This document shows, piece by piece, positions 10,005 through 60,304 of a DNA stretch of 64,000 bases. Both the position numbers and the translations under genes were made by a program. The stretch covers positions 15,215 through 79,214 of the forward strand of contig CAYSJW010000005.1 in the NCBI GenBank assembly GCA_964431555.1. The letters are read 5' to 3'. Numbering within the stretch: the stretch's first letter is position 1; each line of letters opens with the position of its first letter. The notes below the pieces were generated by a model. It saw nothing but the letters and a program-made list of their open reading frames with translations, ran no database searches and was not told where the DNA came from. Origin of the DNA: an uncultured Gammaproteobacteria bacterium. GTDB lineage: Bacteria; Patescibacteriota; Microgenomatia; UBA8517.

Positions 10005-10140
10005 GCTTACGATTCCGGCCTTGACCTATTTTCGCATAGGGTTGCCCCTACACTATCGTCGGCGCTGGAGCGTTTTACAGATCTTGTTCGAAATGGAAAA
10101 GTGTAGTCCCACTCCGCTCACAAGACCGGAATCCTAAGCA
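10005..10140 (-). rRNA. rrf: 5S ribosomal RNA.
   Basis: Reverse complement contains CGAACAAGATCTGTAAAACGCTCCAGCGCCGACGATAGTGTAGGGG...CCCTATGCGAAAATAGG (compare E. coli CCGAACTCAGAAGTGAAACGCCGTAGCGCCGATGGTAGTGTGGGG...CCCATGCGAGAGTAGG). Helix I pairs TGCTTAGGATTCCGG with CCGGAATCGTAAGCA. Ends are approximate. Confidence 0.85.
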
Positions 10141-10297
10141 CAAACAACTTGCTCCCTGACAACTAAAGAGGAGGTCGTAAAAGAATTTTTTCGACCTATT
10201 CGTAGAAGGTAAGCTTAACATCTTACGATGCTTCCACTTCCTTTCGAACAATCTGGTATTCTGCCAGAGGTCTATGACGAGTTCTAATCTTGGGGTG

Positions 10298-10330
<33 letters not shown>

Positions 10331-10535
10331 CTTAGGAATGTAGCTACCCGGCGATGCCGCTGACGCGACAACCGGCACACCAGGGATTCCTCCAGCCTGG
10401 TCCTCTCGTACTGAGGCCAGCTCCCCTCAAAACTCATAACGCTTCCACCGGATAGAGTCCGACATAATTGTTACAAAGGCCGGGTTTTTATACCGGCTCC
10501 CTATGTCGCCATAGGGGTCCGACTATATCTTCTCT

Positions 10536-11304
10536 ACACAAAGTATAGAGTCTGGCGTATAGTCTGTGAGGATTCCAAACTAGAATGATTTTAACATCTG
10601 TCGCTTAGAGTACTTTCTCTTCCGAGTATTCATTGAATAAGAAATATCTAAGATATTCTTCATTCCTTCCCTAGTAAGATGCTTTCCTGACTCAACTAAC
10701 TTTAAAACTTGTTTAAATTTATAAAAAGCATCTCTTTTAATAAAAAGTCTTTTATCAAAGAAAGGAATAATTTTATGCAACAGACTAGATAAATCCCTTA
10801 CTACAAAAGCAAGTGATTTATCGTTTTTATCTGATGAACTATTTTGTCTTATGTAACCACATTGTAATCTATCCTTAAGAGATTCCAAAACCTTTCTGCC
10901 GGAAGGGTTCTGTGAAACCTTAAAAAAATAGATTACCTGCCAGCCATATTTTGTTTCAGAAGAAGGGACAACTCCTATATAAAACATTCCCTCTCCTTCA
11001 ACAAAACCAATAAAATAGTCGTCAGAAAAATACATATCTAGCTTGGTCTTTCCTGCTGGTTGACTCAGAGTTAAGATTTTCACCAGTACATAGATTATAT
11101 ACTAGTACTTAACTATTTAACGAGTGTTTCCAGCATACAGTGGCAAACTAAAATAAATTCAGTTCACCATCCCGTACTTAATAGTACTAGGACCAGATTT
11201 ATCTCAAACTGGGGGTTTGAGCCTGTAGAATACAACAGAGTCCTCAAGATCCAGAACCTCTACAGGAAAGACAGCTCGGTCATCTTGATATGTCTAACAA
11301 GATC
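10536..11304 (-). mobile_element. Group I intron in 23S rRNA domain V carrying a LAGLIDADG homing-endonuclease ORF.
   Basis: 23S collinearity breaks immediately after ...CGTCGCGAGACAGTT (plus coordinate ~11305). It resumes at ~10535 with the GTCGGACCCCTATGGCGACATAGGG region (compare E. coli GTTCGGTCCCTATCTGCCGTGGGCG). The intervening ~770 nt contains ORF 10580..11083. Confidence 0.85.
10580..11083 (-). CDS. LAGLIDADG-family homing endonuclease (intron-encoded).
   Basis: [39 protein letters not shown] carries the LAGLIDADG-type motif [10 protein letters not shown]. 167 aa, embedded in the 23S intron. Confidence 0.9.
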
Positions 11305-11362
11305 AACTGTCTCGCGACGTTCTGAACCCAGCTCACGTACCGCTTTAATGGGCGAACAGACC

Positions 11363-11393
<31 letters not shown>

Positions 11394-11968
11394 CGGTGAG
11401 CCGACATCGAGGTAGCGAACCGCACCGTCGATATGGACTCTCGGGTGCGACTACTCTGTTATCCCCGGGGTAGCTTTTATCCGTTAAGCTCCGCCCACAC
11501 CCATTGTGGATCGGAGGATCACTAAGACCTGCTTTCGCACCTCAAGGCACCATTCAGTGCCCTGCCAGATACCAAATGGCATCTGGGCTCCTGCCGTCAC
11601 AGTCGCAGTCAAGCTGGCTTATGCCTTTGTACATAAAGCACGATGTCCATCCGTGCTAAGCCAACCTTTGTACCCTTGCGTTACTCTTTGGCAAGGTACC
11701 GCCCCAGTAAAACTGCCCATCTAGCACTTTCCCCTGATTCGTTTGCAGAACCATAAGGTAAGTCTTGCCACGCTCCAAAGGGAGGTGTTTCACTTTCCCA
11801 GATACCATAGAGTACCTGGTCCCTCCTACTCTAAACAATTGGTTCGCACAAAACAATGCCAAACTGCAGTAAAGCTCCACGGGGTCTTTTTGTCCGGGTG
11901 GAAGTAGGCCGCGTCTTCACAGCCATCGCAATTTCGCCGAGTAGAGGCTCGAGACAGTTGCTAACTCG

Positions 11969-12002
<34 letters not shown>

Positions 12003-12933
12003 GAGGGACTTCGCTACCGTAGAACAGTTATAGTTACTGCTGCCGTTTACCGGAGCTTGAGTTCGGTGCACATAGCACACAACCATCAACTTCCACACCA
12101 GCCTTATTAGTCGTTAGCTGATTGTCGGTTGTTGAAAGTTGTGCGCTATGCACACCTCCCCTTAACTTACCGGCACTGGGCAGGCGTCAGCCCATATACC
12201 TTACCTTTCGGTTTTGCATGGACCTGTGTTTTTGTTAAACAGTCGGTTAGCAATCGTTAGCTGCGCCCTGAAGCCAGCTTGCGCATGCTTCAGGGAGGAC
12301 ATATCCCTAAGTTACGTCCAGCTTTTTTGCCGAGTTCCTTGAACCTCTTTCTCTCGCTCGCCTTAGTATTCTCTACCAGCCCACCTGTGTCGGTTTGTGG
12401 TACGGCTTGCTTTGAATCTCACTGCGAGCCTTTTTTGAAAGACTGAATAGGATGAAATTGCCCCGCTTTCGCAAGACTTTGCATAACTGCTTGATTAATC
12501 GTTTCAGCGGATTTCCCAACTGCCACTATCTCACAGCTTACACCGGACTTCACGTACCGGCTTCAACTATCCAACCTTGTCAGCCCCCAGCTAGTGTGCG
12601 TTGCACACTTGGGCGATTCAAAACAAATACAGGAATTTTAACCTGTCATCCATCAGCTACCCCCGCAATGCAGGGCTCACCTTAGGTGCCGACTAACCCG
12701 TCGCGGACGAACCTCCCGACGGAAACCTTGGGCATTCGGCGGAGGGGATTCTCACCCCTCTAGTTCGCTACTCATACCGGCATTCTCACTTCCAAACGCT
12801 CCACCACACCTTACGGTATGACTTCACCGCATTTGGAACGCTCCCCTACCGGGGATACCAAACGGTACCCCCCTCTGGCTTCGGTATCATTTTTAATCCT
12901 CGATAAATCTTCGGCGCCGTAAACCATCAACCA

Positions 12934-12992
<59 letters not shown>

Positions 12993-13505
12993 ATGATTTT
13001 CGACTTCCTTTCAAACTTAAAATGAATTTAGAGACCTTAGCCGAGAGTCTGGGTTGTTTCCCTCTCGTCTTATCAGCTTAGCCCGATAAGACTGTCTAGC
13101 AAGTTTTCGCACATCATTATTCGGAGTTTGGTTGGAATAACTCGGTTGCCCTCGCTATCCCATCCAGTAGCTCTACCACTAATGTACCTACCTTGCCACG
13201 GTGCCTATACACCTTTCGGGGAGAACCAGCTATCTCCAGGCTCGATTGGCATATTACCCCTATCCACAAGTCATCCGAGCTTATTGCAACAAACACCGGT
13301 TCGGGCCTCCCCCTAGATTTCTCTAGGGTTCACCCTGCTCATGGATAGATCGCTCTGGTTTCGGGTCTCGCCACACTTTCTAGGGCACTATTCGTACCCA
13401 TCCAAAATGGAATTCGCTTTCGCTACGCCTCCGTTCTTTAAAGAACTTAGACTTGTGAAAATGAGGCGAACTCGCCGGTTCATTCTTCAATAGGCACGCT
13501 ATCAC

Positions 13506-13640
13506 ACCTCGCTTCACTCGGTGTTCAAAAAATCAAAATGAAAAAGAATAAATATTAAAGAATTAATAAACTTTTATCTCTTAAATACTCATCTTACACT
13601 TTTCATTTTGAAGTATGAATTTGAGCGTCGAGTGAAACGA
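13506..13640 (-). other. AT-rich hairpin insertion (intervening-sequence-like expansion) inside the 23S rRNA 5' half.
   Basis: ~130 nt of ~20% GC inside otherwise ~50% GC rRNA, with an inverted repeat CAAAATGAAAAAG...CTTTTCATTTTG. It is flanked by conserved 23S sequence. Confidence 0.5.
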
Positions 13641-13709
13641 GATGCTCTAGCGGTTTGTCCGCAAACAGTTTCAGGTTCTATTTCACTGGGCGTCCCGCCC
13701 TTCTTTTCG

Positions 13710-13741
<32 letters not shown>

Positions 13742-14650
13742 TTTCAAGCATATTTAGCCTTGGAGGATGGTTCCCCCAGATTCCCACAGATTTTAGACCG
13801 TGGTACTTAGGATACTTCTAGAGGTTGGTTTAGTTTCACATACGAGGCTTTCACTCTCTATGGCCTTCTATTCCAAGACGTTCTGCTACCAAACCAACTC
13901 CCACAATGAAGTCCTGCAACCCTCTTTCGTTCCCGAAGAAACAAAAGAGTTTAGGCTATTGCCGTTTCGCTCTCCACTACTAAGGCAATCACTATTGTTT
14001 TCTTTTCCTCACCCTACTAAGATGTTTCAGTTCGGATGGTTCCCTCCTCGCACCTTATAGGTACTCACAACAATCAACAATCAACCAACAGATATTGTAA
14101 GTTCCGCGGAGCGGAACACGTCGACTGTTAACTGTAGAGAGTACCTCTTAGGGTACGGGTAGTCGCTTTTGAAAGCAACTGGGTTTCCCCATTCGGACAC
14201 CGCCGGATCACTGGATCGTGGCTCCTACCCGGCGATTATCGGAAGCCTTGCCCGTCCTTCTTCGGTGCTTGAAACCAAGGCATCCACTGTCTGCGTTAGT
14301 AAAAGACTTTTACGACCTTGTCCGTAATAGCTTGTACAAAGTACACGCATACGGACCTACTTCCCCAAATTAAAAGATCAATATTGGGGATATCTTTCCT
14401 CTTTAGTTGTTAAGGAGCAAATCAATTTTAGATATAAGATCTAAGATACAGGATACAAGATTTAAGATTTCAGTTCAAAAAATCTTACTTCCTACTTCCT
14501 TCATCTTACATCCTAATTCCAACAACTAACCACTCACAACCCACAACTCACCACTTATTTCCCACTACCCATATATTCTTGATTCTTGGTAAACGGAGAC
14601 TCGTGATCAAAAAGCCAAATCACCAATCTCCGATTAGCAAAAATCAAATG

Positions 14651-14724
14651 TGGACCCGGAGGGAATCGAACCCTCTACCTCCTCATTGCAAATGAGGTGT
14701 TCAAACCTTGTAAACTTCGGGCCC
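14651..14724 (-). tRNA. tRNA-Ala (anticodon UGC).
   Basis: Reverse complement GGGCCCGAAGTTTACAAGGTTTGAACACCTCATTTGCAATGAGGAGGTAGAGGGTTCGATTCCCTCCGGGTCCA. The anticodon loop is TTTGCAA, with G3:U70 and an A discriminator. It lies upstream of 23S as expected for a spacer tRNA. Confidence 0.88.
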
Positions 14725-14954
14725 TAACCCCCACGGATCTTTTAATTTTTTTAATCTGCAAAACAAAAAAACCCGCTCATTAAGGCGGGTTGACTAAACA
14801 AAAGGAAACCTCTTTCACCCACAAAAGGGGGTATTAAGATTGGTTTCTTTGTGAATTTTCATTATTTTCATCAAGCAACTCGCCTTAAGGCAAGGACAAT
14901 TATATTACACTCTGTCAAGACAAGTCAACCACAATTTTTTTCAAAATATCTCCC

Positions 14955-15839
14955 CTAATTGATTGATTCTTGAATAATTTCTCTGGCTTGATTAATAGGT
15001 AATTTTTCGTTTTTTACATTAACCTCATCAGGCAAATTCTTTCCCCAAATTTCCAAAATTCTTTGTCTATCATTTTCATCCGTAACTAACTGCTTAAATC
15101 TCTCCCTTACAAAATTAACGAAAAAGTATGGATTAACTTCTGCAAAAGGATTTTCAATCCCATTTTCATATATCAATCCTAAAAGTCTCCTCTCATTTTG
15201 ACTAAATAAATCATTACCAATCTGATCCATGACTCTCATAAAAACACTAAATGGAGATTTTTGGTCTTCAGGCATGTATTTCGTTTCGTTTATAAGATGT
15301 TTGACAAATTGATTATACCTTTGCTTTTTTTCCTCGCCCAAATTGGAATTATTAATTAAAAATTCAGCAATAGCTTGACTCCTTTCTTCCGCAACTTTGC
15401 CTGTAAAAACATCTTTACCAGCAGTATAGTTGGGAAGGAAAGAAGGTTTAATATTGCCACTTCTTACCGAGAGAAAACTTATTATATTACCAGTATCGTG
15501 GGTATAGATTGCAAACATTATAGCTTCAGACAATTCATCTTCCGGAATAATTAAGTCTGGATGAGAATTATTCCACAAATCCAACGACTTATACAATTCT
15601 AACGGATCATCATCTCTAGAACATCCATCCATATACTTTTTTACAGCACCCACTACTGCTTCAATGTGGCGTCTATTATGAAAGGAGTCTTTATTATTCC
15701 ATACCTCGCTATCAAAAGTATCATGCCACGTAAGACATTTTTCCCAAATTTCCTGGGGCGATAATTGCTCCTTTAATCTACTAGTCTCATTCTCAACAAT
15801 TACAGTTTGAATTTCCTGATTTTCAAGAACATCTGTCAT
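14955..15839 (-). CDS. HD-domain (metal-dependent phosphohydrolase superfamily) protein encoded between tRNA-Ile and tRNA-Ala of the rRNA operon.
   Basis: A 294-aa ORF with H...HD motifs (FHNRRHIEAVV; AIYTHDTGNI) and later acidic residues. It is on the same strand as, and between, the two spacer tRNAs. Confidence 0.55.
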   Translation of the reverse strand: MTDVLENQEIQTVIVENETSRLKEQLSPQEIWEKCLTWHDTFDSEVWNNKDSFHNRRHIEAVVGAVKKYMDGCSRDDDPLELYKSLDLWNNSHPDLIIPEDELSEAIMFAIYTHDTGNIISFLSVRSGNIKPSFLPNYTAGKDVFTGKVAEERSQAIAEFLINNSNLGEEKKQRYNQFVKHLINETKYMPEDQKSPFSVFMRVMDQIGNDLFSQNERRLLGLIYENGIENPFAEVNPYFFVNFVRERFKQLVTDENDRQRILEIWGKNLPDEVNVKNEKLPINQAREIIQESIN

Positions 15840-15939
15840 TTAATAACCCTTGATATATATGATATATACTTCATTTTACCAACCTGGAAAATAAAATTAA
15901 AACAAATCTCCTTTATTTATAAAAATAGTTCAGTTTTTG

Positions 15940-16012
15940 TGGGCGGCCATGGAATCGAACCATGCACCTCTTACTTATCAGGTAAGCGTTCTAACCGATG
16001 AACTAGCCGCCC
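15940..16012 (-). tRNA. tRNA-Ile (anticodon GAU).
   Basis: Reverse complement GGGCGGCTAGTTCATCGGTTAGAACGCTTACCTGATAAGTAAGAGGTGCATGGTTCGATTCCATGGCCGCCCA. The anticodon loop is CTGATAA and the cloverleaf is canonical. Confidence 0.9.
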
Positions 16013-16181
16013 GAAAATATACTAAACTGTTTACTACAAATAAAATTTTACATTTATTTTTTTCCAAAAACAACCCACCACCCACTACTCACAACCCACA
16101 ACTCACTACCCACCACTCACAACCCACAACTCATATCTCACCCCCCCTTCTTTTACTCTGACTTAAATGTATAATTAGATT

Positions 16182-16880
16182 ATGGAAAAACTAACCACAC
16201 TTGCCCTCAAGCTTCCCAGAAACACTCAGGTTACGCCGGAAGCGGCAAAAACCTTCCTTTCTGCACTCATCCAAATTAACTTTATCTCTACCTTTAAAAA
16301 ACTTTTCGGCACTAAAAGAAAACCTTTAGCTTTAGAGATTGCTCTTATTAATCAACAAATCTACTTTTTGATAACTACGGATAACGAACTTATTCCCTTT
16401 ATAGAAACACAGATTACCTCAAATTACCCCTTGGCGATAATCGAAAAGACAAAAGACCCTCTTGAAGTAATTTCTTACAATTTAGTCAACATTTTCCTTC
16501 AAAAAGGAAACTATTATCCAATTGCCACATTTGAAAATTTTCAAGAGGTTGACCTACTCTCTTCAATACTTTCTGTTCTTGCGAAATCCGATCCAGACGA
16601 AGTCACAGTCATTCAATATGCACTTGAATCAACAAATAATTCTTGGCAAACAAAAGGAGCGGGCTTTGCAAAAAAAGGAACAAAAAACCCCGATGGTACT
16701 TATTCCCCAAGATTTGATTTAAATATCATAAACGAAAAAATTTCTTACCCAGGTTTCAGATGTAGCATCCGAATTATTAGTAATGCAAATAAAACCCTAA
16801 ATGAATTGTCAAGTGCCTTTGGTGTCTTTAATAGATCCGACGGAAATTACTTTATTTCTCAAAGACCTAATTTTTTTTAA
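16182..16880 (+). CDS. Hypothetical protein.
   Basis: A 232-aa ORF with ordinary composition for this genome; no recognisable motifs. Confidence 0.45.
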   Translation: MEKLTTLALKLPRNTQVTPEAAKTFLSALIQINFISTFKKLFGTKRKPLALEIALINQQIYFLITTDNELIPFIETQITSNYPLAIIEKTKDPLEVISYNLVNIFLQKGNYYPIATFENFQEVDLLSSILSVLAKSDPDEVTVIQYALESTNNSWQTKGAGFAKKGTKNPDGTYSPRFDLNIINEKISYPGFRCSIRIISNANKTLNELSSAFGVFNRSDGNYFISQRPNFF

Positions 16881-18567: not shown

Positions 18568-19332
18568 ATGAATAACCACAAAAAGTTATTTATCTACACA
18601 ATTCTAATAACTACAGCCTTCTTTCTAACTCGACTAATAAATCTGACCTTACAACCTATTTTTTGCGATGAAGCTATTTACATAAACTGGGCCCAAAAAA
18701 CAGAGAACAATTTTAAGCTAAACGCTTTTTTGCCTTTAACAGATGGTAAAACTCCACTTTTTATGTGGGCAACTTCATTAAGCCTTAAAATTTTCAAAGA
18801 TCCTCTTTTTGCTGGAAGAATAGTCTCAGTTCTTGCCGGTTTTTCTTCTCTCATCGCCGCTTTTTTTCTCGGAAAAGAAATTTTCAAAACAAAAACAGGA
18901 ATTATCTCTGCTATTCTGCTAACTTTTCTGCCGTTTACTCTGTTTTTTGACAGAATGGCCCTAGTTGATTCAATGCTTGCCACTTTTTATCTTTGGTCCT
19001 TAGCGCTTGCCTTAAAAATATCTCAAAAGCCCAAGGTCAAAACAGCCGTTCTTTTAGGCTTAAGTTTGGGAGGAGGGATATTAACCAAAACCCCGGGAAT
19101 TTTTGCTTTTATCTCTTTACCCTTCATACTCATTGCAACCAACTTAAAAGATCTTAAAAAGGTAGCACTTAATCTTGGTCTTTCCGCTTTTATTGGTTTC
19201 TTTATTTTTAACCTGCTTAGAATTAGCCCCTATTTTGAAAACTTGTCAAAAAGAGACTCTGGGTATTACTTTCCCATAAGACATATCCTAGAAAACCCCA
19301 CAAATCCACTAACTGGAAATACAATAGGGTAA
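18568..19332 (+). pseudogene. N-terminal fragment of a GT-C fold (GT39/GT83, ArnT/PMT-like) membrane glycosyltransferase, truncated by IS insertion.
   Basis: Polytopic membrane N-terminus with FCDEAIYINWAQ (DE..Y loop motif of PMT/ArnT-type transferases). The ORF ends after 254 aa with a TAA lying inside the IS inverted repeat (GGGTAAAGT), whereas family members are ~450-550 aa. Confidence 0.5.
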
Positions 19333-20184
19333 AGTCTAATTATTCGGACCTTAAATGTTGATTTAATAACATAAATAAGCGTTTTTCTTGCTCTTTGAAA
19401 TTTTAATTTCTGTGATTGTATCGCCAGATGTATTCTCCAAGATATAAAGGCAGTCTTTGTTGACAAATTCCACCTCTAGCCGCTAGTTTCCTTTTCAAAT
19501 ATCCCCAAAATCCTTCAAGGCCATTGATGTGATTTCCTTTTTTATTAGAATACTCTTTTTTACTATGATCAACAAGTCGATGGACATAACCTTTGGATGC
19601 TAATCCAGTGTATCCTCGCCAAGTATCAGAACAGATGGTTGAACCTTTGCTAACTTGTTTTTCAATTAAGGGTTGTAAATCTCTGGCTTCTGTATCAGGA
19701 ACAATCTCAGCGAATATCTTTCCTTCCCGGCACAAAATACCAAAGACTGGTTGTTTAATAGTCCCAAAACCCCTGCGATTTTTACCATATTTTATGCAGT
19801 CTTTTTGCTTTCTATTCTTCATTTGACCACCCAAGTAAGTCTCATCTACTTCTACTATTCCCGAAAAGATGTCTGGCACATCTTTAGTCATTACTATTCT
19901 TAACAGAATTAATAATTTCAGAAGTTTGTATTTGGAAATGTTAACCCTTTCAAGGATAGTGTTGGTTGAATGTTCTAACACAAACTCAGAAATTACTTTT
20001 TTAACAACCCTTTTATTAAGTCTTAGAAGCTTCTTTTTCAGAGTAAATGACTTTCGACAAACTAAACAACGAAGACGTCCATCTTTTAATCTCCAGAACC
20101 TTTTGGTATTACTACATTGTAAACATTTCGTCATATTCCTAATGTGATTTTATCCCATTAGGTCTGAAATATTGAACTTTACCC
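19327..20184 (-). mobile_element. IS1595-family insertion sequence (~858 bp) with ~24-bp terminal inverted repeats.
   Basis: Left end GGGTAAAGTCTAATTATTCGGACC (19327..19350). The right end reverse complement is GGGTAAAGTTCAATATTTCAGACC (20161..20184). It encloses transposase ORF 19403..20134. Confidence 0.8.
19403..20134 (-). CDS. IS1595-family (ISXO2-like) DDE transposase.
   Basis: N-terminal zinc ribbon CLQCSNTKRFWRLKDGRLRCLVCRK and a C-terminal region ...HINGLEGFWGYLKRKL...YLGEYIWRYNHRN typical of DDE_Tnp_IS1595. Confidence 0.85.
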   Translation of the reverse strand: MTKCLQCSNTKRFWRLKDGRLRCLVCRKSFTLKKKLLRLNKRVVKKVISEFVLEHSTNTILERVNISKYKLLKLLILLRIVMTKDVPDIFSGIVEVDETYLGGQMKNRKQKDCIKYGKNRRGFGTIKQPVFGILCREGKIFAEIVPDTEARDLQPLIEKQVSKGSTICSDTWRGYTGLASKGYVHRLVDHSKKEYSNKKGNHINGLEGFWGYLKRKLAARGGICQQRLPLYLGEYIWRYNHRN

Positions 20185-20446
20185 TATATTATGAAAGCTT
20201 TCTAGTCAATGATAACTAAAATATTCAAAACATATCTTCAAAGCACCCCTTGTTAGAAGAGAAAAAAATTTCAAGCGGGATCGTGGGACAAAAAACCTCC
20301 TTGTAAAACTCTTGGTGGAGGGTACAGAGATGGTAAAAAATAGCAGTTAGCAATTAGCAGTTAGTTGTTAGTTGTTAGTAGTTAGTAGTTAGCAATTAGC
20401 AGTTGGCGGTTGGTAATTAGCAGTTGGTTTTTAGTAAAATGCAAAT

Positions 20447-20719
20447 ATGAGCGGTTTTGAGGATTTGAGGATTTATAGACTTTCTTTGGAGGGCTGCAAG
20501 ATAATTTACAAGATTATTTTAAAAGACCCTATTAAAAAAGATTACTCTTTAGTTGATCAAATAAAAAGGGCAGTTATGTCGATTGTCGCTAATATTGCTG
20601 AAGGTTATGGACGCTACACTAAAAAAGACCGCTCTCAGTTTTTAACATATTCAATTGGATCTTGTAATGAAGTACTAGCCTTTTTGGATATAATCAATAC
20701 TATTTGTAATATTGAATAA
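20447..20719 (+). CDS. Four-helix-bundle protein (TIGR02436, '23S rRNA intervening-sequence protein' family), short form.
   Basis: LRIYRLSLEGCKIIYKI...AVMSIVANIAEGYGRYTKKDRSQFLTYSIGSCNEVLAFLDI has the NIAEG signature. It is a paralog of the ORF inside the 16S IVS. It is flanked by inverted heptamer arrays at 20341..20427 and 20811..20880. Confidence 0.75.
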   Translation: MSGFEDLRIYRLSLEGCKIIYKIILKDPIKKDYSLVDQIKRAVMSIVANIAEGYGRYTKKDRSQFLTYSIGSCNEVLAFLDIINTICNIE

Positions 20720-21531: not shown

Positions 21532-22185
21532 TCGTCATTCGGGGTAACCCCAACACTAAGTCAGTTGGAAACTGACGACAAGGGTTACCCCACCCCCTCT
21601 CCCTTGTACCAAGTTTTACTTGGTGAGAGGCTCATCGATCGATCGAAAGATGGGTAAAACAAGGAAAGCGGGGCTCGCGAAATGGTAATTTTGCCCTCAA
21701 GACGCTTGCGTCTTTCGTCTTACGCAGACGATTAATGAGTGGCGATTTAGCCAATTTGCGAGTATGCGGACTGTTTATGAGTTGTGTTTTGATTTTAGGA
21801 CGAAACGATAACCGTAAGGTTATCAAATCAAGTAGCCAAAAAGCTACAAATCCAAAAAATCAAATCCAACCCCCAAAATAGTCCCCCCGCAATAGTTAGT
21901 TTTCGACCAACAGTCGAACTGAAGAGATCTTGTCCGATAATTATCGGAATGCGATCGAAACTATTAAACAAATTAATTAGTGTGTCGTAACTGATCCCAG
22001 CACAGAACTTACTTGCTCCCGAGTACTACGTGCTCGCGTCACAAGAGCGTTTATGCGGGACAAGTGAGACCGAAAGGTTGAAACTAAAAAAATAGTTTAG
22101 TATTTAGTTATTAGTGGTTAGTATTTAGTTTAAATTACACCTTAACAATTTATTCATTGACCAAAAATCACGGAAGTGGTTTAAT

Positions 22186-23679: not shown

Positions 23680-24222
23680 CTAAATTCACAAAATCACCAA
23701 TTCCTCAACACCGGGAGTTGATCAGCTTCCAACAATGGGTCTTTTAGATAAAGTGAGTTGTTGGTTGTTAGTTGTTAGTTGTTAGTTGTTAGTGGTTAGT
23801 GGTTAGTTATTAGTTGTAAGAGGTATGGAATGAGGAGTGAGTGGTGGGTAGTGGGTAGTGGGTTGTGGGTTGTGAGTAGTGGGTGGTGAGTTGTGATAAA
23901 TAGATATAGGAAGTTAGAAGTTAGTAGTTAGTATCTGGGAGTTGAGGAAAATAAACCCAAAACACAAAATTCAAAATTGTAATAAAAATTTAAAAATTAT
24001 AATTATTAATATAAAGTAGAATCATTAACTATTAACCATAAATTAATAATAATTTACAGGTTTTGAAGTTTAGTATAAAGCTTTCAAGATTTAGCTTTTG
24101 AGACACAAATATTCTCCATAATAAAAGACCAACGCCATATAAAGATTCTGAATAGCAATTTTATTCACTACAAAGTATTTTGACTGGAAAAATAGTTCAA
24201 TACTATAATATCAAATTACAGC

Positions 24223-24792: not shown

Positions 24793-25079
24793 AATCTCAA
24801 AAAATCCCCTAGTCAAATTTATATTTTGACATCCAAAATATGACTGGAAGCGGTCCCCGTTTTATCACAGTCAAAACGGCGAACTTAAAAACTGGGTGCT
24901 ATCACCCCTCTTTCGCAAAAAAGCAAAAAGAGGGTTCCCGTGAGAACTCCTTAGAAAGGAGGTGATCCATCCGCTCCTTCCAGAACGGATACCTTGTTAC
25001 GACTTAATCCTCATCGCTGGTTTCACCTTCCCCTCCGACTCGGAGGGTTCGGGTGCCCCCAACTTTGCTGACTTGACGG

Positions 25080-25951
25080 ATTGCACTTCATCGAAGTTAT
25101 CGTGCGTTCCCACTAAGCGAGCGGCTTTCCCGCACTTAGCGAGCCGTAATGCTTATTCATCTCCAGCTTCAATTTCCTAATAAAAGAGAGTTCTTTTTCA
25201 GAGAGCTTACGCACATCCTGCCTTCCCTTAACTATCTCGGCTATTTGGCAAAAAGCATTAAAACTTTCCGCTTTATAGCCCAAGAGTTTATGTCGTTTGA
25301 AAAAGGGTATTATGACATTGTAAATATCATCCCTTTTTGTAAATTCAAAGACCCAAGCAGGAAGACGACCCACGCGCCTAGCACTCTTTTGATAAACAGT
25401 CCCTACGTTGAAAAATTGCTGGACCTTTAAAAGCAATGGTTTATTTCCTTCAGCTTGAGTAATGAAAAATCGTAAATCGATTCTGTTATCAGCTCGAATA
25501 GATACAAGGAAACATCCCTCACCTTCTGTCAATCCAACAACATATGAAGCTGGAAGCATTACGTATTTCCCTTCGATAATGCCAGTATACGAATGTTTTC
25601 AATATACTGTCAATTATCTACTATGGAAATGCTGACTTCCTAAAAGGCAATTACTTCGTTCCTTTTAGGATCTCCGTGGGTCATCATATATTCTATTCCC
25701 GGCATGAACAAATTGCTTTTACAAACTGGCTTCCTTCTGACCGCCCAGCAGAAGTCGCCAAGCATTTTCATTTTGTCCCTGCCGTTTGCCTCAGGCCCTC
25801 CGTTCTATCGGTTACCCGTAAAAGCAAAGTTTATACTTTGCAATAGAACTGCCAATTTTTTGGCTACATTTCAAGTTGGTAAAGGTTAACCATCAAGAAA
25901 TGGTAAGATTTTAACTTACTAGAATATATGACTGCCACGCGCGCATTTATT
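25080..25951 (-). mobile_element. Group I intron in the 16S rRNA 3' domain, inserted after GTACACACCGCC, carrying a LAGLIDADG ORF.
   Basis: 16S collinearity stops after ...GGGTCTTGTACACACCGCC (plus 25952) and resumes at CGTCAAGTCAGCAAAGTTGGGGG (plus ~25079). The ~870-nt insert contains ORF 25113..25559. Confidence 0.85.
25113..25559 (-). CDS. LAGLIDADG-family homing endonuclease (intron-encoded, in 16S).
   Basis: MLPASYVVGLTEGEGCFLVSIRADN carries the LAGLIDADG-type motif VVGLTEGEGCF. 148 aa. Confidence 0.9.
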   Translation of the reverse strand: MLPASYVVGLTEGEGCFLVSIRADNRIDLRFFITQAEGNKPLLLKVQQFFNVGTVYQKSARRVGRLPAWVFEFTKRDDIYNVIIPFFKRHKLLGYKAESFNAFCQIAEIVKGRQDVRKLSEKELSFIRKLKLEMNKHYGSLSAGKPLA

Positions 25952-26414
25952 GGCGGTGTGTACAAGACCCGAGAACGTATTCACCGCGACTTTGCTGATT
26001 CGCGATTACTACCAATTCCGCGTTCATGAGGGCGAGTTGCAGCCCTCAATCCCCACTGAGAAGCCGTTTGATGGGATTAGCTCCGCGTTACCGCTTGGCA
26101 ACCCATTGTCGGCTCCATTGTAGCATGCGTGTAGCCCTGGACATAAGGGCCATGCTGACTTAACGTCATCCCCGCCTTCCTCCAAGTTTAACTTGGCAGT
26201 CCCGTATGAACAATCTAACATACGGCAGGGGTTTCGTTCGTTACCCCACTGAAGGGAACACCCCACGGCACGAACTTACGATAGCCATGCAACACCTGTC
26301 CTACCATCCAACTTTCGAAGGATCTGCTACTATTTCTAGTAACATAAACGGTAGGATGTCAAGTCCAGGTAAGGTTCTTCGGTCCGTCTCGAATTAAACC
26401 ACATGCTCCACTGG

Positions 26415-26446
<32 letters not shown>

Positions 26447-27359
26447 TAAACTTGCGTTCGTACTCCCCAGGCGGCTCGCTTAACGCGTTAGCTTGCGCCC
26501 CACGCCCAAAGGCGTAGGGCTAGCGAGCATAGTTTACGGCTAGGACTACAGGGGTCTCTAATCCCTTTCGCTCCCCTAGCTTTCGTTCCTCAGCGTCAAA
26601 CAGTTCATAGTTACCTGCCTTCGCCCTCGGTGTTCCTTGCGATATCAACGGATTTCACCCCTACACCGCAAGTTCCGGTAACCCCTAAATGTTTCGATTT
26701 CTTCAGTATTACCTCCCTTTCCGAGGTTAAGCCCCGGTCTTTGAAAGATAACTTAAAGAAACGCCTACGAACTCTTTACGCCCAATAAATCCGGACAACG
26801 CTTGCACCCTCTGTATTACCGCTGCTGCTGGCACAGAGTTAGCCGGTGCTTATTCTCCGTTCGGTCTCCCTCACGGCAAAAGTGGTTTACAACCCGAAGG
26901 CCTTCATCCCACACGCGGCGTCGCGGCGTCAGACTTTCGTCCATTGCGCACGATTCCCAGTTGCTGCCACCCGTAGGTGTATGGGCCGTGTCTCAGTCCC
27001 ATTCTGGGGGGTCACGCTCTCACGTCCCCTACCCGTCGTAGCCTTGGTAGGCCATTACCCTACCAACTAGCTGATAGGCCGCAGGCTCCTCCTTCGGCGG
27101 ACAGTTACATCCTTTGCTGCGTAGCAGCCAACCATCAACTAACAACAATCAACTCACAACTCTTATATTAGTTGTCTTTTAATTGTTGAAGCTCACAAGA
27201 TGAGCGTGTTGAAAGCTCGCTGCTGCGCAGCGTATGCGGTATTAGCCCCGCTTTCGCGGGGGTATTCCCCACCAAAGGGTAGATTCCTACGTGTTACTCA
27301 GCCGTTCGCGACTATCCGCAGGACAGAACATTCAACAATAAACAAGTAACTGGTTACAA

Positions 27360-27722
27360 CTAACTCTTCTTAAGATACTTCGAAAAACCTCCAAGTTGAT
27401 CAGCAATCTGCTTAGTTTCCTTTATCAACTCATTTTTTAAAGTAGAACTTATAAGTTTAGATTCAAATGCTATATCAATTCCAGCAGTAGTTTCATTTAT
27501 AGAACCTAATGAGTTGTTTAAATACATATTCAATTCTTTATCAGAGTCTTTGCCAGATCCTTCTGCGATATTAAGAACTACAGAGAGACTACTCCTTCTT
27601 ATCTGATCCGCTAATTCCCTATGTTCTCTCGGGAAAGTTTTACTTATCTCAACAACTGACAAATAAAATCTTTTTGCATCTTTATAAACTTTAAACCTCA
27701 TAAATCGAAATGTTTTATCCAT
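27360..27722 (-). CDS. Four-helix-bundle protein (TIGR02436, rRNA intervening-sequence protein) encoded inside an IVS in the 16S rRNA V1 region.
   Basis: MDKTFRFMRFKVYKDAKRFYLSVVEISKTFPREHRELADQIRRSSLSVVLNIAEGSGKDSDKE has the family-defining NIAEG motif. The ORF sits ~70 nt into the 16S, between inverted flanks GGTCCGCAGGAC / GTCCTGCGGA that form the IVS stem. Confidence 0.85.
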   Translation of the reverse strand: MDKTFRFMRFKVYKDAKRFYLSVVEISKTFPREHRELADQIRRSSLSVVLNIAEGSGKDSDKELNMYLNNSLGSINETTAGIDIAFESKLISSTLKNELIKETKQIADQLGGFSKYLKKS

Positions 27723-28157
27723 ATTCTTTGTTAATAATTAATAGTTACCAGTCGCAAGTTACAAGTTGATCTGTTCGGTCCTGCGGACCGTCCCACTTGC
27801 ATGCTTAAGGCACGCCGCTAGCGTTCGTCCTGGGCCAGGATCAAACCCTCAAATAAGTGACGAGTTTATACCCTAGTTGCGTATAAACAGCAACCAAAGT
27901 GTAGTTCGTCTATACGCCGGGTGTCAAATGACACCCGATCAGGTACCGAATGGCACCTGACTTCCAGTCATATTTTGAATGTCAAAGAGCAAAAATCAAA
28001 AAACCCACCAGATGGTGGGTTAATTTTAAGTTCCCGAATTAACGGAAAACCATCTGGCTCTTATTTCTTCATAAACTAAACTCAAATCAACTAAATGTAT
28101 TGAGCATATATAGTATATCAAAAAAATCAAACGAGTCAATTATAAATTTTTAGAATT

Positions 28158-32832: not shown

Positions 32833-33195
32833 AATGTAATTTCAATTAAGTTAAATAAGCAGGTAAATTATAACAAAAGACCAGTCCTTTTAAAACTCGG
32901 ATAACAAAAATATATTTTGTTCAAAAAGATTTCGTATAAAACATAGTTTTCCAGCAAATTTCCTAAGTCAAAGGGCTTCTAAGCTAAAACATTTGAATTC
33001 AAGTCCTCCCGAGCTTATAAATCTAGCAGGTTCAAAAAAACCAAAAATTACCCACTGTTGGAAGCTAATCAACACCCGGTGTTGAGAAATACTCACTACT
33101 CACAACTAACAACTCACTACCAACTTCTTACATCCTACATCCAATTTCCTATTGCCTTAACACTTAATAATTTGTCCTAATCTTCAATACCTAAG

Positions 33196-41772: not shown

Positions 41773-42311
41773 ACCAATTTATTTCTTAAACACATACAAC
41801 TAACAACTATTTCCTACATCCTACATCTTACTTGCTACTTCCTAACCCCAACTTCCAATCACCTACAACTAACCCCCTACCACTCACAACTAACTTCTCA
41901 CAACCCACCACTCATTTCCCATTACCTACAACCAATATCCATAACCCACTACTTACATCATCAACTTATTTATATTTAAATTTTTTATCCACTTTGATGA
42001 TTCGAATCATAGATACAGACTATCCTCATACACTTCACTAACAACAACCTATTACCTACTTCTCACTGCTCACTACCATCTGCTAATAACTACCAACCAC
42101 CTACTTCCTACTTCCTATATTCTACATCCTACATCTTACTTGCTACTTCCTAACCCCAACTTCCAATCACCTACAACTAACCCCCTACCACTCACAACTA
42201 ACTTCTCACAACCCACCACTCACTACTCACTACCCACTACTCACTATCCACCACTCACTACCAACAACCAACTACTCACAACTCCCTACCCTCTCAAATA
42301 AATCAGGGATA
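41770..42311 (+). repeat. A 540-nt tract almost devoid of G on the plus strand, built from degenerate heptamer repeats (CYCACWA / CCACTAM). It contains a 100-bp perfect internal direct repeat.
   Basis: Only ~7 G in 540 nt. Heptamer periodicity is visible, e.g. CCACTCA CAACTAA CTTCTCA CAACCCA CCACTCA. 41814..41914 is identical to 42123..42223. A 14-bp perfect palindrome ATGATTCGAATCAT lies at 41997..42010, preceded by the DnaA-box-like TTATCCACT. Confidence 0.9.
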
Positions 42312-59586: not shown

Positions 59587-59880
59587 AGGAGAAATTCTTT
59601 AGTATTTAGTATTTAGTATTTAGTAGTTAGTGGTTAGTGGTCAGTGGTTAGTAGTTTATAGTTGATCATTAGCAATAAATTTTCCTTCCACCTTTCAACC
59701 AACCACCAACAACTTATAACTTATAACTTATAACTTACTTCTCACTACCCCCCTCTTACTTATCATCACTCACAGCTCACAATCCACTACTTATTTCTCA
59801 CTTCTCACAACCCACTACTCATAACTCACTACACGCTATCCACTTCTCACTATCTACACAATCTACGACTAACCTACCTT
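59587..59880 (+). repeat. Back-to-back inverted heptamer arrays: (TTAGTRG)n at 59590..59680 (C-free) switching to (CYCACWA)n at 59690..59880 (G-free).
   Basis: AGTATTTAGTATTTAGTATTTAGTAGTTAGTGGTTAGTGG... is followed by ...CTCACTTCTCACAACCCACTACTCATAACTCACTAC. The two halves are imperfect reverse complements. An 18-bp near-palindrome CGATAATTCGAATCATCG follows at 59899..59916. Confidence 0.85.
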
Positions 59881-60061
59881 TTAATGACTTATCCACTTCG
59901 ATAATTCGAATCATCGATGTAATTTAAGATTTACTAATTGTCAAGAACAATCCGATAATAATTTAAAATTAGCTACAATATTAATCGTATATATAAAGAA
60001 AATTTTTCCTGTATTAACTATTAACTAAAGTTTACTCCATACAGGCTAATACATAATTCTG

Positions 60062-60304
60062 AACTTTTATTCTATTTCAAATTCTCTTTACCTAACTACT
60101 CACAACTCACCACCCACCACTCACTTCCTACTCCCTAATCCCTACATCTTACTTCTTACATCCTATTCTTACTTCCTATAACCAACTACAAACAACCAAT
60201 AACTAACAACTTACCACTCACTACTCACCACCCACTACCCACCACTCACTTCTTACTTTATATTTCCTTTCTTTCCAACTATTTTTTCAAAATCATCTCT
60301 ATCT
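60062..60304 (+). repeat. 243-nt G-free heptamer-repeat tract spanning the ftsH stop and 3' flank.
   Basis: No G between 60062 and 60304. Repeats are of the form CTACTCA CAACTCA CCACCCA CCACTCA. Confidence 0.85.

Follow-up and report, generated by a model that had tools for sequence, protein, structure and literature searches.

Unlinked rRNA genes, as in Rickettsiales and Deinococcus-Thermus, are reported to be common in Patescibacteria (Brewer et al., bioRxiv 10.1101/705046), and rRNA genes of the candidate phyla radiation (CPR) are reported to have insertions that carry open reading frames (ORFs), namely LAGLIDADG introns and intervening sequence (IVS) proteins (Brown et al. 2015). Both are found in a stretch of 64,000 nucleotides (nt) of an uncultured bacterium of the GTDB lineage UBA8517 (Patescibacteriota, Microgenomatia; assembly GCA_964431555.1, contig CAYSJW010000005.1, positions 15,215 to 79,214), called the window below. 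A gene for a protein of 294 amino acids (aa) is located there between tRNA-Ile and tRNA-Ala, upstream of 23S. As in other unlinked loci, the 16S and 23S-5S genes are much more than 1500 bp apart with unrelated genes between them, and as in other CPR rRNA genes three ORFs are truly embedded in the 16S and 23S of the same locus. The window differs from the former in that both spacer tRNAs remained with 23S, tRNA-Ile being a separate unit that is often inverted in relatives, and in that a gene slot opened between the two spacer tRNAs. It differs from the latter in that the 294-aa ORF is intergenic, not inside an rRNA or tRNA gene, and has no endonuclease domain.

An earlier note, made from the letters alone, had placed this gene inside an rRNA operon, co-transcribed with the rRNA precursor, and had taken its position as very unusual and suggestive of a mobile insertion or an RNA-processing-linked phosphohydrolase of the HD family. 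We favor another reading, to which we give a probability of roughly 60%: the gene is an ordinary one, likely coding for a divergent HD hydrolase, that came to lie in a variable slot within a fragmented rRNA locus and would have no dedicated role in rRNA maturation.

Organization of the locus

The features between tRNA-Ile and 23S are the following.

14955..15839, minus strand: protein gene, 294 aa, ATG start (ORF listing)
15940..16012, minus strand: tRNA-Ile, anticodon GAU (ARAGORN; Rfam tRNA, 64.6 bits)
14651..14724, minus strand: tRNA-Ala, anticodon UGC, G3:U70 (Rfam tRNA, 59.1 bits; anticodon and acceptor stem read by eye)
16045..16073, minus strand: promoter-like site of tRNA-Ile, TTGTTT (16073..16068), 17-nt spacer, TG-TAAAAT (16052..16045), read from the sequence
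15873..15881, minus strand: candidate extended -10 element TGGTAAAAT before the 294-aa ORF, read from the sequence, of the same type as the tRNA-Ile -10 of relatives
14899..14928, minus strand: sigma-70-type promoter TTGACT-18-TATAAT, 11 of 12 matches (consensus scan), beginning 27 nt past the stop codon of the ORF
14761..14898, minus strand: leader of about 130 nt (25-sequence alignment, terminator scan, nhmmer)
Parts of the leader, minus strand: 5' hairpin, 14894..14879; ORF of 18 codons, 14871..14815; terminator stem, 14791..14770, followed by U7

The ORF is co-directional with the two tRNAs between which it lies, and the 5' start of 23S was placed by Rfam at 14310 on the minus strand, downstream of all three; coordinates and strands agree with the earlier reading. 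The second tRNA had been named tRNA-Ala, correctly, because its letters (GGGCCCG...CCUCAUUUGCAAUGAGG...CGGGUCCA) include the anticodon UGC and a G3:U70 pair. The 91-nt tRNA-Pro(AGG) that ARAGORN called at this site is an error, since Rfam and manual reading define a 74-nt tRNA-Ala; the same miscall recurs in the loci L004-L006, and the acceptor stem GGGCCCG is unusual. When the region 14300..16200 was compared with contigs of three other assemblies (ENA ERZ27245602, JGI 3300022548, and JGI 3300010284), identities of 100%, 100%, and 99.95% over 1901 nt were found. Being near-identical in three independent assemblies, the order tRNA-Ile, ORF, tRNA-Ala is real, and the assembly artefact named before as an alternative is ruled out.

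The rRNA operon appears, from its sequence, to be fragmented into three units: 16S, tRNA-Ile, and tRNA-Ala-23S-5S. As 16S ends about 8.9 kb upstream of tRNA-Ile, the region between the two tRNAs is no contiguous 16S-23S spacer. The 8.9-kb stretch holds an IS1595 transposase and ORFs on both strands, six of which are on the opposite strand and 90 aa or longer, and 16S is bracketed by its own processing stem (27986..27961 with 24850..24825, 26 nt, 96% complementary); with these opposite-strand ORFs, this transposase, and a separate 16S stem, a single uninterrupted co-directional transcription unit from 16S to 23S is not found. On the 23S side, TTGACT-18-TATAAT is the sole promoter-like site in 14200..16400 by consensus scan, where shuffles expect 7.2, and 27 distinct upstream regions of related loci have the same promoter, between -164 and -224 relative to tRNA-Ala. 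Because this conserved promoter and the leader lie after the stop codon of the ORF, the 23S unit appears to start downstream of it. Between gene and rRNA there are thus a promoter (14928..14899) and a terminator (14791..14770), both conserved. The proposed co-transcription inside an rRNA operon is not supported, given the unlinked 16S, the genes on both strands, a tRNA-Ile with a conserved promoter of its own, the location of the only strong promoter past the ORF, and the intrinsic terminator that separates the ORF from tRNA-Ala. Since the operon has come apart into several transcription units, the gene most likely lodges in the slot without being part of the rRNA precursor.

The promoter motif of tRNA-Ile, TTGTTT-N17-TGnTAAATT, is present upstream of this tRNA in most related loci, and the copy in the window falls below the threshold of the consensus scan. 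As the extended -10 element TGGTAAAAT is of the type conserved in the tRNA-Ile promoters, the ORF may have a promoter of its own; a Shine-Dalgarno-like AGGG precedes it at 15847..15850. Transcription of the ORF would probably begin at one of these two, the tRNA-Ile promoter or the extended -10 element, and the transcripts of the ORF would run into the leader, where they would end at the terminator or read through.

The slot was compared among relatives by scanning metagenomes with the 21-mer of the tRNA-Ile anticodon arm, which gave 60 loci; layouts were defined with ARAGORN and with blastn against the rRNA of the window, and after near-duplicates were collapsed 35 architectures remained, including that of the window. 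tRNA-Ile is co-directional with tRNA-Ala in 24 of them and on the opposite strand in 11. Inverted copies were seen in L034, L036, L041, L042, L058, L061, L063, L065-L067, L072, L074, L078, L080, and L087. In those organisms tRNA-Ile is outside the 23S transcription unit, since it is on the strand opposite to tRNA-Ala-23S. The closest relatives (L035/L073 and L082/L085), whose 16S segments are about 88-91% identical to that of the window, have a gap of 212 nt between the two tRNAs with no gene in it, and their 16S is about 6 kb away. The synteny comparison therefore defines the ORF as an insertion into a 212-nt spacer. On the other hand, a gene of some kind in the slot is not as unusual as had been thought: in nine of the 35 architectures the gap is 880 nt or longer and holds ORFs of 116 aa or more, which belong to at least seven unrelated families (examples are one DUF7736 and one LuxR-like protein, besides several orphans and a block of 5.7 kb). 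With tblastn and hmmsearch, no slot ORF of the relatives showed a relation to the HD-like family. Homologs of the 294-aa protein in other genomes had no tRNA or rRNA within the contigs examined in seven of seven cases, which speaks against the suggested link with RNA processing. With the slot of relatives empty or occupied by unrelated cargo, and with homologs elsewhere unlinked to rRNA, the ORF can be considered the lineage-specific occupant of a slot whose genes differ between lineages. A scan of GTDB genomes with the 3' end of tRNA-Ala returned mostly unrelated phyla and no useful synteny. In nine loci (L028, L041, L051, L052, L055, L057, L072, L075, and L080) a fragment resembling the 5' half of tRNA-Ile (GGGC...GCTTACCTGATAAG...) is found directly upstream of the intact tRNA-Ile, at about 40-110 nt; it may be what is left of a duplication, or else part of an unusual gene structure.

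The rRNA genes themselves have the following extents and insertions.

24958..27855, minus strand: 16S rRNA, true extent about 2.9 kb, with two ORF-bearing insertions (end motifs GAGGGTTTGATCCTGGCC and GGATCACCTCCTTTCT)
About 27780..27330: intervening sequence in 16S with ORF 27722..27360 (23S_rRNA_IVP family, E=2e-25)
About 25951..25075: insertion of about 870 nt in 16S after CACACCGCC, with ORF 25559..25113 (LAGLIDADG_1, E=6e-17)
10190..14310, minus strand: 23S rRNA, 3' end approximate (Rfam LSU, i.e. large subunit, match 11235..14310, and sarcin-ricin loop)
14397..14420, minus strand: 5' arm of the 23S processing stem, pairing with 10149..10172 (24 nt, 92% complementary, inverted repeat)
10013..10130, minus strand: 5S rRNA (Rfam 5S, 63.2 bits)

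The 5' end of 16S, GAGGGTTTGATCCTGGCC, is at about 27855 and its 3' end, GGATCACCTCCTTTCT, at about 24958. The extent given by Rfam, 25898..27399, was rejected, as the insertions are hidden in its coordinates. An insertion at about 11235..10440 splits 23S and carries a LAGLIDADG ORF (11083..10580; LAGLIDADG_1, E=1.6e-15), and this ORF is inside 23S rather than between 23S and 5S because the sarcin-ricin loop AGTACGAGAGGACC is found beyond it, at 10412..10399. The 16S and 23S of the window thus hold three ORF-bearing insertions of their own, a second reason why a protein gene at this locus is less exceptional than supposed. An exact boxA-like match, TGCTCCTTAACAA, is located at 14419..14407 in the 5' arm of the 23S processing stem.

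Within the 8.9-kb stretch between 16S and tRNA-Ile, inverted repeats at 19319..19351 and 20160..20192 (33 nt, 79% complementary) enclose the ORF of the IS1595-family transposase (19403..20134, minus strand, E=2.7e-33). Arrays with a period of 7 nt (GTTAGTN, GTGGGTN, or ACTCACN) are present in at least 12 intergenic regions of the window, often sense-upstream of the next gene, for example at 14498..14571, 16049..16147, 20312..20452, 22096..22130, 23747..23908, 33090..33120, 41879..42289, and 59598..60250. Two of these arrays flank the module of tRNA-Ile, ORF, and tRNA-Ala, and the arrays appear genome-wide. The G/T-rich heptamers were considered as insertion scars of the module and rejected, given the similar arrays in those 12 or more intergenic regions.

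The 294-aa protein and the HD superfamily

The HD-domain superfamily of metal-dependent phosphohydrolases (Pfam PF01966) is said to have been described by Aravind and Koonin in 1998. The 294-aa ORF has eight close homologs with 37-47% identity, one of which is named only as a hypothetical protein of a Microgenomates group bacterium, and a profile search of 1.84 billion representatives gave 201 clusters at E<=1e-3 and 117 at E<=1e-30. A second, word-indexed homology search with a profile of 124 sequences added one protein, P0154, which has neither a Pfam domain nor a name. The AlphaFold model, made from the alignment of eight sequences, has a mean predicted local distance difference test score (pLDDT) of 89.3 and a predicted template-modelling (TM) score (pTM) of 0.86; the predicted fold is all-alpha with one beta-hairpin, and disorder is confined to residues 1-22. 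The N-terminus is common to the homolog P0008, and the GC content of the ORF is 33.2%, compared with 35-37% for the neighboring genes and the window. The homologs, the roughly 200 clusters, the confident model, the shared N-terminus, and a GC content close to that of its neighbors establish that this is a real and conserved gene, presumably a functional chromosomal one. The family is unannotated and found mainly in Microgenomates-type CPR bacteria.

The residues that had been read as metal-binding motifs are present (H54/H58, H114-D115, and D205). H114 is invariant across 124 family representatives, and H39, H54, H58, D78, N90, D115, G117, N118, Y138, E151, R153, S154, T186, D205, G221, L222, and E225 are conserved in at least 90% of them; H39, H54, H58, H114, D115, and D205 are all invariant in the eight close homologs. 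H58, H114-D115, and D205 make up the H...HD...D pattern of metal ligands that is characteristic of the HD type.

Searches of curated libraries gave sub-threshold similarities only. The protein of the window had no match in Pfam or NCBIfam at E<=1 and none in PADLOC or among PDB sequences, and ten divergent members scanned singly had no HD match. Among Pfam families, PF01966 drew matches from the largest number of members (8 of 124; the best, at E=5e-4, did not reach the gathering cut-off), with Cas3_HD and HD-CE next. The family consensus aligned with positions 4-112 of the 116 of PF01966 (E=0.55, 11 bits versus a cut-off of 22), so that this weak alignment extends over the full profile and takes in its first His as well as its last Asp. 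Isolated HDIG, cas3_HD, and dGTPase matches were obtained in NCBIfam, those to HDIG and cas3_HD at E of about 0.005-0.08, and among the PADLOC Cas3-HD models the best match of the consensus was Cas3a2 (E=2.8e-5, sub-threshold). When PDB sequences were searched with profiles built from 8 or 124 sequences, nothing was found besides one stretch, obtained with the latter profile at E=1.8, over the HD motif of a Cas3-type HD domain (PDB 8wth). Foldseek found no significant match in the PDB (best E=0.41, TM-scores up to 0.38); about one third of the 50 weak matches were HD or phosphodiesterase (PDE) proteins, including dGTPase, PDE1B/4/7A, the PDE domain of SdeC, the HD domain of the CCA enzyme, and PPX.

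Like the known HD proteins, this family has the H58, H114-D115, D205 set, a predicted, mostly alpha-helical fold with a core of comparable size, and weak similarity over the whole profile to PF01966, HD-CE, and Cas3_HD. Unlike them, no member reaches a curated cut-off and no solved structure matches significantly, and the family adds conserved H39, H54, D78, N90, an E151-R153-S154 block, a DQIGN motif, and a beta-hairpin insert. Among the profile similarities below threshold, the best one is to the HD nuclease domain of Cas3 (Cas3a2 and 8wth); however, that match is limited to the N-terminal third of the family, and neither a helicase partner nor a CRISPR/cas context was found in the window or at the loci of the homologs. 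Because no curated or PDB match is significant, the assignment as a hydrolase rests on the motif and on the sub-threshold similarities. Of the HD-domain identity stated in the earlier note, the conserved H...HD...D signature stood, whereas no HD-family hit was obtained at the curated thresholds of Pfam and NCBIfam, an outcome that the note itself had named as refuting. The protein is probably a very divergent HD-superfamily metal-dependent phosphohydrolase; HD-type catalysis is what we infer from its residues.

The neighbors of the homologs vary and include Nudix (L008 and L003), HIT (L089), and nucleotidyltransferase (L088 and L089) proteins. A conserved small partner gene downstream of the homologs was considered and rejected, as the small ORFs are mutually unrelated. 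In a single informative fusion, P0058 (649 aa), HisKA and HATPase_c histidine-kinase domains are fused N-terminal to the HD-like domain, which hints at a signaling or phosphodiesterase role, or alternatively at a gene-calling fusion. Together these neighbors and the kinase fusion are faint hints of nucleotide or signaling chemistry.

The leader upstream of tRNA-Ala and 23S

Ribosome-mediated attenuation is reported for bmrCD, vmlR, and erm (e.g., PMC4191407 and PMC9226507). The region between the 294-aa ORF and tRNA-Ala has an organization that recalls such attenuators and has not been described so far. In conserved order, a TTGAC(T/A)-N17/18-TATAAT promoter and a 5' hairpin are followed by the invariant AUG, located in (U)UAUGAGAA, by a stretch rich in A, and by two further hairpins, one short and the other the GC-rich hairpin of the terminator, after which comes a U-run; in the window the terminator has a GC-rich stem of 7 bp before the U-run. 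At least five different stem sequences occur among the copies of the terminator hairpin, each fully complementary. Copies are found among the related loci L029-L087, and an nhmmer profile of 25 copies gave 43 hits in 645 kb, exactly one of which is in the window (14895..14766, E=2.5e-16). Every complete hit is co-directional with tRNA-Ala(UGC), 2-61 nt upstream of it, or 192-425 nt where a small ORF intervenes. Loci with an inverted tRNA-Ile and loci with cargo genes keep the unit as well, and the stop codons of the cargo genes are found 2-60 nt before the -35 element of the leader promoter. Neither in the window nor in seven relatives did Rfam recognize a known RNA family within the 230 nt that follow the ORF; its nearest sub-threshold matches to the leader were the Trp and Leu leaders. 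In several relatives (L041, L057, L061, L063, L065, L067, and L080) a Lys/Glu-rich ORF of about 60-80 aa, with 36-72% identity between lineages, is located between the leader terminator and tRNA-Ala and ends right at the tRNA.

A frame of 14-20 codons is open from the invariant AUG in all 25 copies. Substitutions in it are distributed over the codon positions as 29/37/33, and of the codon changes 55 are nonsynonymous and 15 synonymous. With no codon-position bias and nonsynonymous changes far in excess, it would be the act of translation that matters, if the leader is translated, and not the peptide. Minimum-energy folds define two states: in one, the 5' hairpin is followed by a long hairpin enclosing the small ORF and by the terminator, and in the other the 5' region is paired with the 5' arm of the terminator. 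For six close copies RNAalifold chose the second state and kept all 12 of its pairs. The duplex between the cognate 5' region and terminator arm has z<=-2 versus shuffles in about 15 of the 25 copies and is missing from about 7. With all 25 leader sequences aligned by MAFFT, RNAalifold found no structure, the hairpins being out of register.

The U-run ends 2 nt before tRNA-Ala in L038, L043, and L081 and 8 nt before it in L069 and L086, and 23S begins within tens of nucleotides after tRNA-Ala. As this leaves no room for another promoter, synthesis of 23S in these five loci would need read-through of the terminator, and a conditional terminator, that is, an attenuator, is therefore the most economical reading of the leader. 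Alternatively, the terminator may be a leaky one that belongs to an independent small RNA gene. Upstream of tRNA-Ala the promoter, the short ORF, and the intrinsic terminator are all conserved in relatives, as expected of an attenuator. The leader resembles the leader-ORF attenuators (the trp and leu leaders, and those of bmrCD, vmlR, and erm) in its promoter, short ORF, predicted alternative pairings, and intrinsic terminator. It differs from them in preceding tRNA-Ala-23S-5S rather than a protein operon, and in lacking both a run of regulatory codons and signs that the peptide is under selection; its attenuator function is a prediction from the sequence. A broader proposal, which we put forward tentatively and regard as doubtful, is that the recurrent cargo slot abuts a clade-wide leader that gates tRNA-Ala-23S-5S, so that synthesis of the large subunit rRNA in these CPR bacteria would be under transcription attenuation, for example by sensing of free ribosomes by way of leader translation, or of a ligand or a protein, and the genes in the slot, the HD-like one included, would have their 3' end and any read-through in common with this switch.

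The unlinked 16S has a comparable region upstream of the 5' arm of its processing stem. There, on the minus strand, a promoter at 28139, TTGACT-16-TATACT with a TG, is followed by a terminator at 28021..28002, AACCCACC-AUCU-GGUGGGUU and a U-run, and an upstream CCAGAUGG is complementary to the apical CCAUCUGG of this terminator. A similar 16S leader was seen in L052 (7558..7667).

Origin of the gene and implications

In the reading that we favor, the gene would have landed, in this one lineage, between a self-promoted tRNA-Ile and the promoter and leader of tRNA-Ala-23S-5S, and its position would reflect decay and rearrangement of the locus, not a dedicated role in rRNA maturation. Several points weigh against this reading. 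The terminator scan found no terminator between tRNA-Ile and the ORF nor between the stop codon of the ORF and the downstream promoter, and some read-through from the ORF into tRNA-Ala-23S may occur. That unrelated genes recur in exactly this slot could point to selection of the position rather than mere tolerance, for example because a gene there is highly expressed or coupled to rRNA synthesis. As to the hydrolase part of the reading, no curated HD model was reached at threshold and no PDB chain was significant by sequence or fold. The protein might accordingly have a different all-alpha fold, the H...HD...D residues being a superficial likeness that serves, for example, another metal site or a non-catalytic role; the missing matches in Pfam, NCBIfam, and the PDB, the poor Foldseek scores (best E=0.41, TM-scores up to 0.38), and the negative scans of the ten divergent members would all fit such a protein. 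We consider it unlikely, as the four residues of the HD metal site are the most conserved positions across the 124 representatives, HD-type families lead the weak matches in three independent libraries (Pfam, PADLOC, and NCBIfam), and the faint alignment with PF01966 covers that profile from its first His to its last Asp.

The missing terminators are also what one would expect of a partner in rRNA or tRNA maturation, a phosphohydrolase or nuclease that would be co-transcribed with tRNA-Ile, tRNA-Ala, and 23S and released by processing of the RNase P/RNase Z type. The gene is co-directional with both tRNAs, 23S, and 5S; several HD-superfamily enzymes act on RNA (RNase Y, the HD domain of the CCA enzyme, and Cas3), and the CCA-adding enzyme is among the weak fold matches. 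Such a role is nevertheless very improbable, given that the homologs elsewhere (seven of seven) are away from any tRNA or rRNA and have neighbors that suggest nucleotide metabolism (Nudix, HIT, and nucleotidyltransferases), that the slot is empty in the closest relatives and holds unrelated genes in others, and that a strong promoter and a strong terminator stand between the ORF and tRNA-Ala. The gene might instead have been carried in, as cargo, by a mobile or selfish element for which the tRNA-Ile/tRNA-Ala region is the target. Its absence from the otherwise homologous spacer of the closest relatives, the seven or more unrelated cargo families in the same slot, the inversion of tRNA-Ile in 11 of the 35 architectures, the tRNA-Ile 5'-half fragments upstream in several loci, the IS1595 transposase 3.5 kb away, and the abundance of homing-endonuclease introns at the locus would agree with this origin. 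What makes it hard to accept is that neither the ORF nor its flanks have a transposase, integrase, or homing-endonuclease domain, that no duplicated tRNA-Ile 3' end is found as an attachment (att) site, that no repeats are specific to the ORF flanks, the heptamer arrays being genome-wide, that the GC content looks native, and that the homologs are in ordinary, non-conserved housekeeping neighborhoods. The mobile insertion suggested in the earlier note is thus borne out insofar as the gene is an insertion relative to the closest relatives, but not in the hallmarks of a mobile element (domains, att site, terminal repeats), and an ordinary gene lodged in a variable slot remains the reading that we prefer.

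The ORF defines an unannotated family of about 200 clusters with a confident model, an HD-like metal site, and no recognizable relatives. Once the operon is fragmented, a gene between the spacer tRNAs is no evidence of an rRNA-linked function, and this clade illustrates the decay of an rRNA operon into three units with a slot between them that accepts genes. The stakes of the ORF are modest, and the attenuator-like leader is more interesting than the ORF itself: a strong intrinsic terminator is located between the sole good promoter and 23S, and in some genomes it is 2-8 nt from tRNA-Ala. If this terminator is conditional, it would be a direct mechanism by which these organisms control rRNA transcription.

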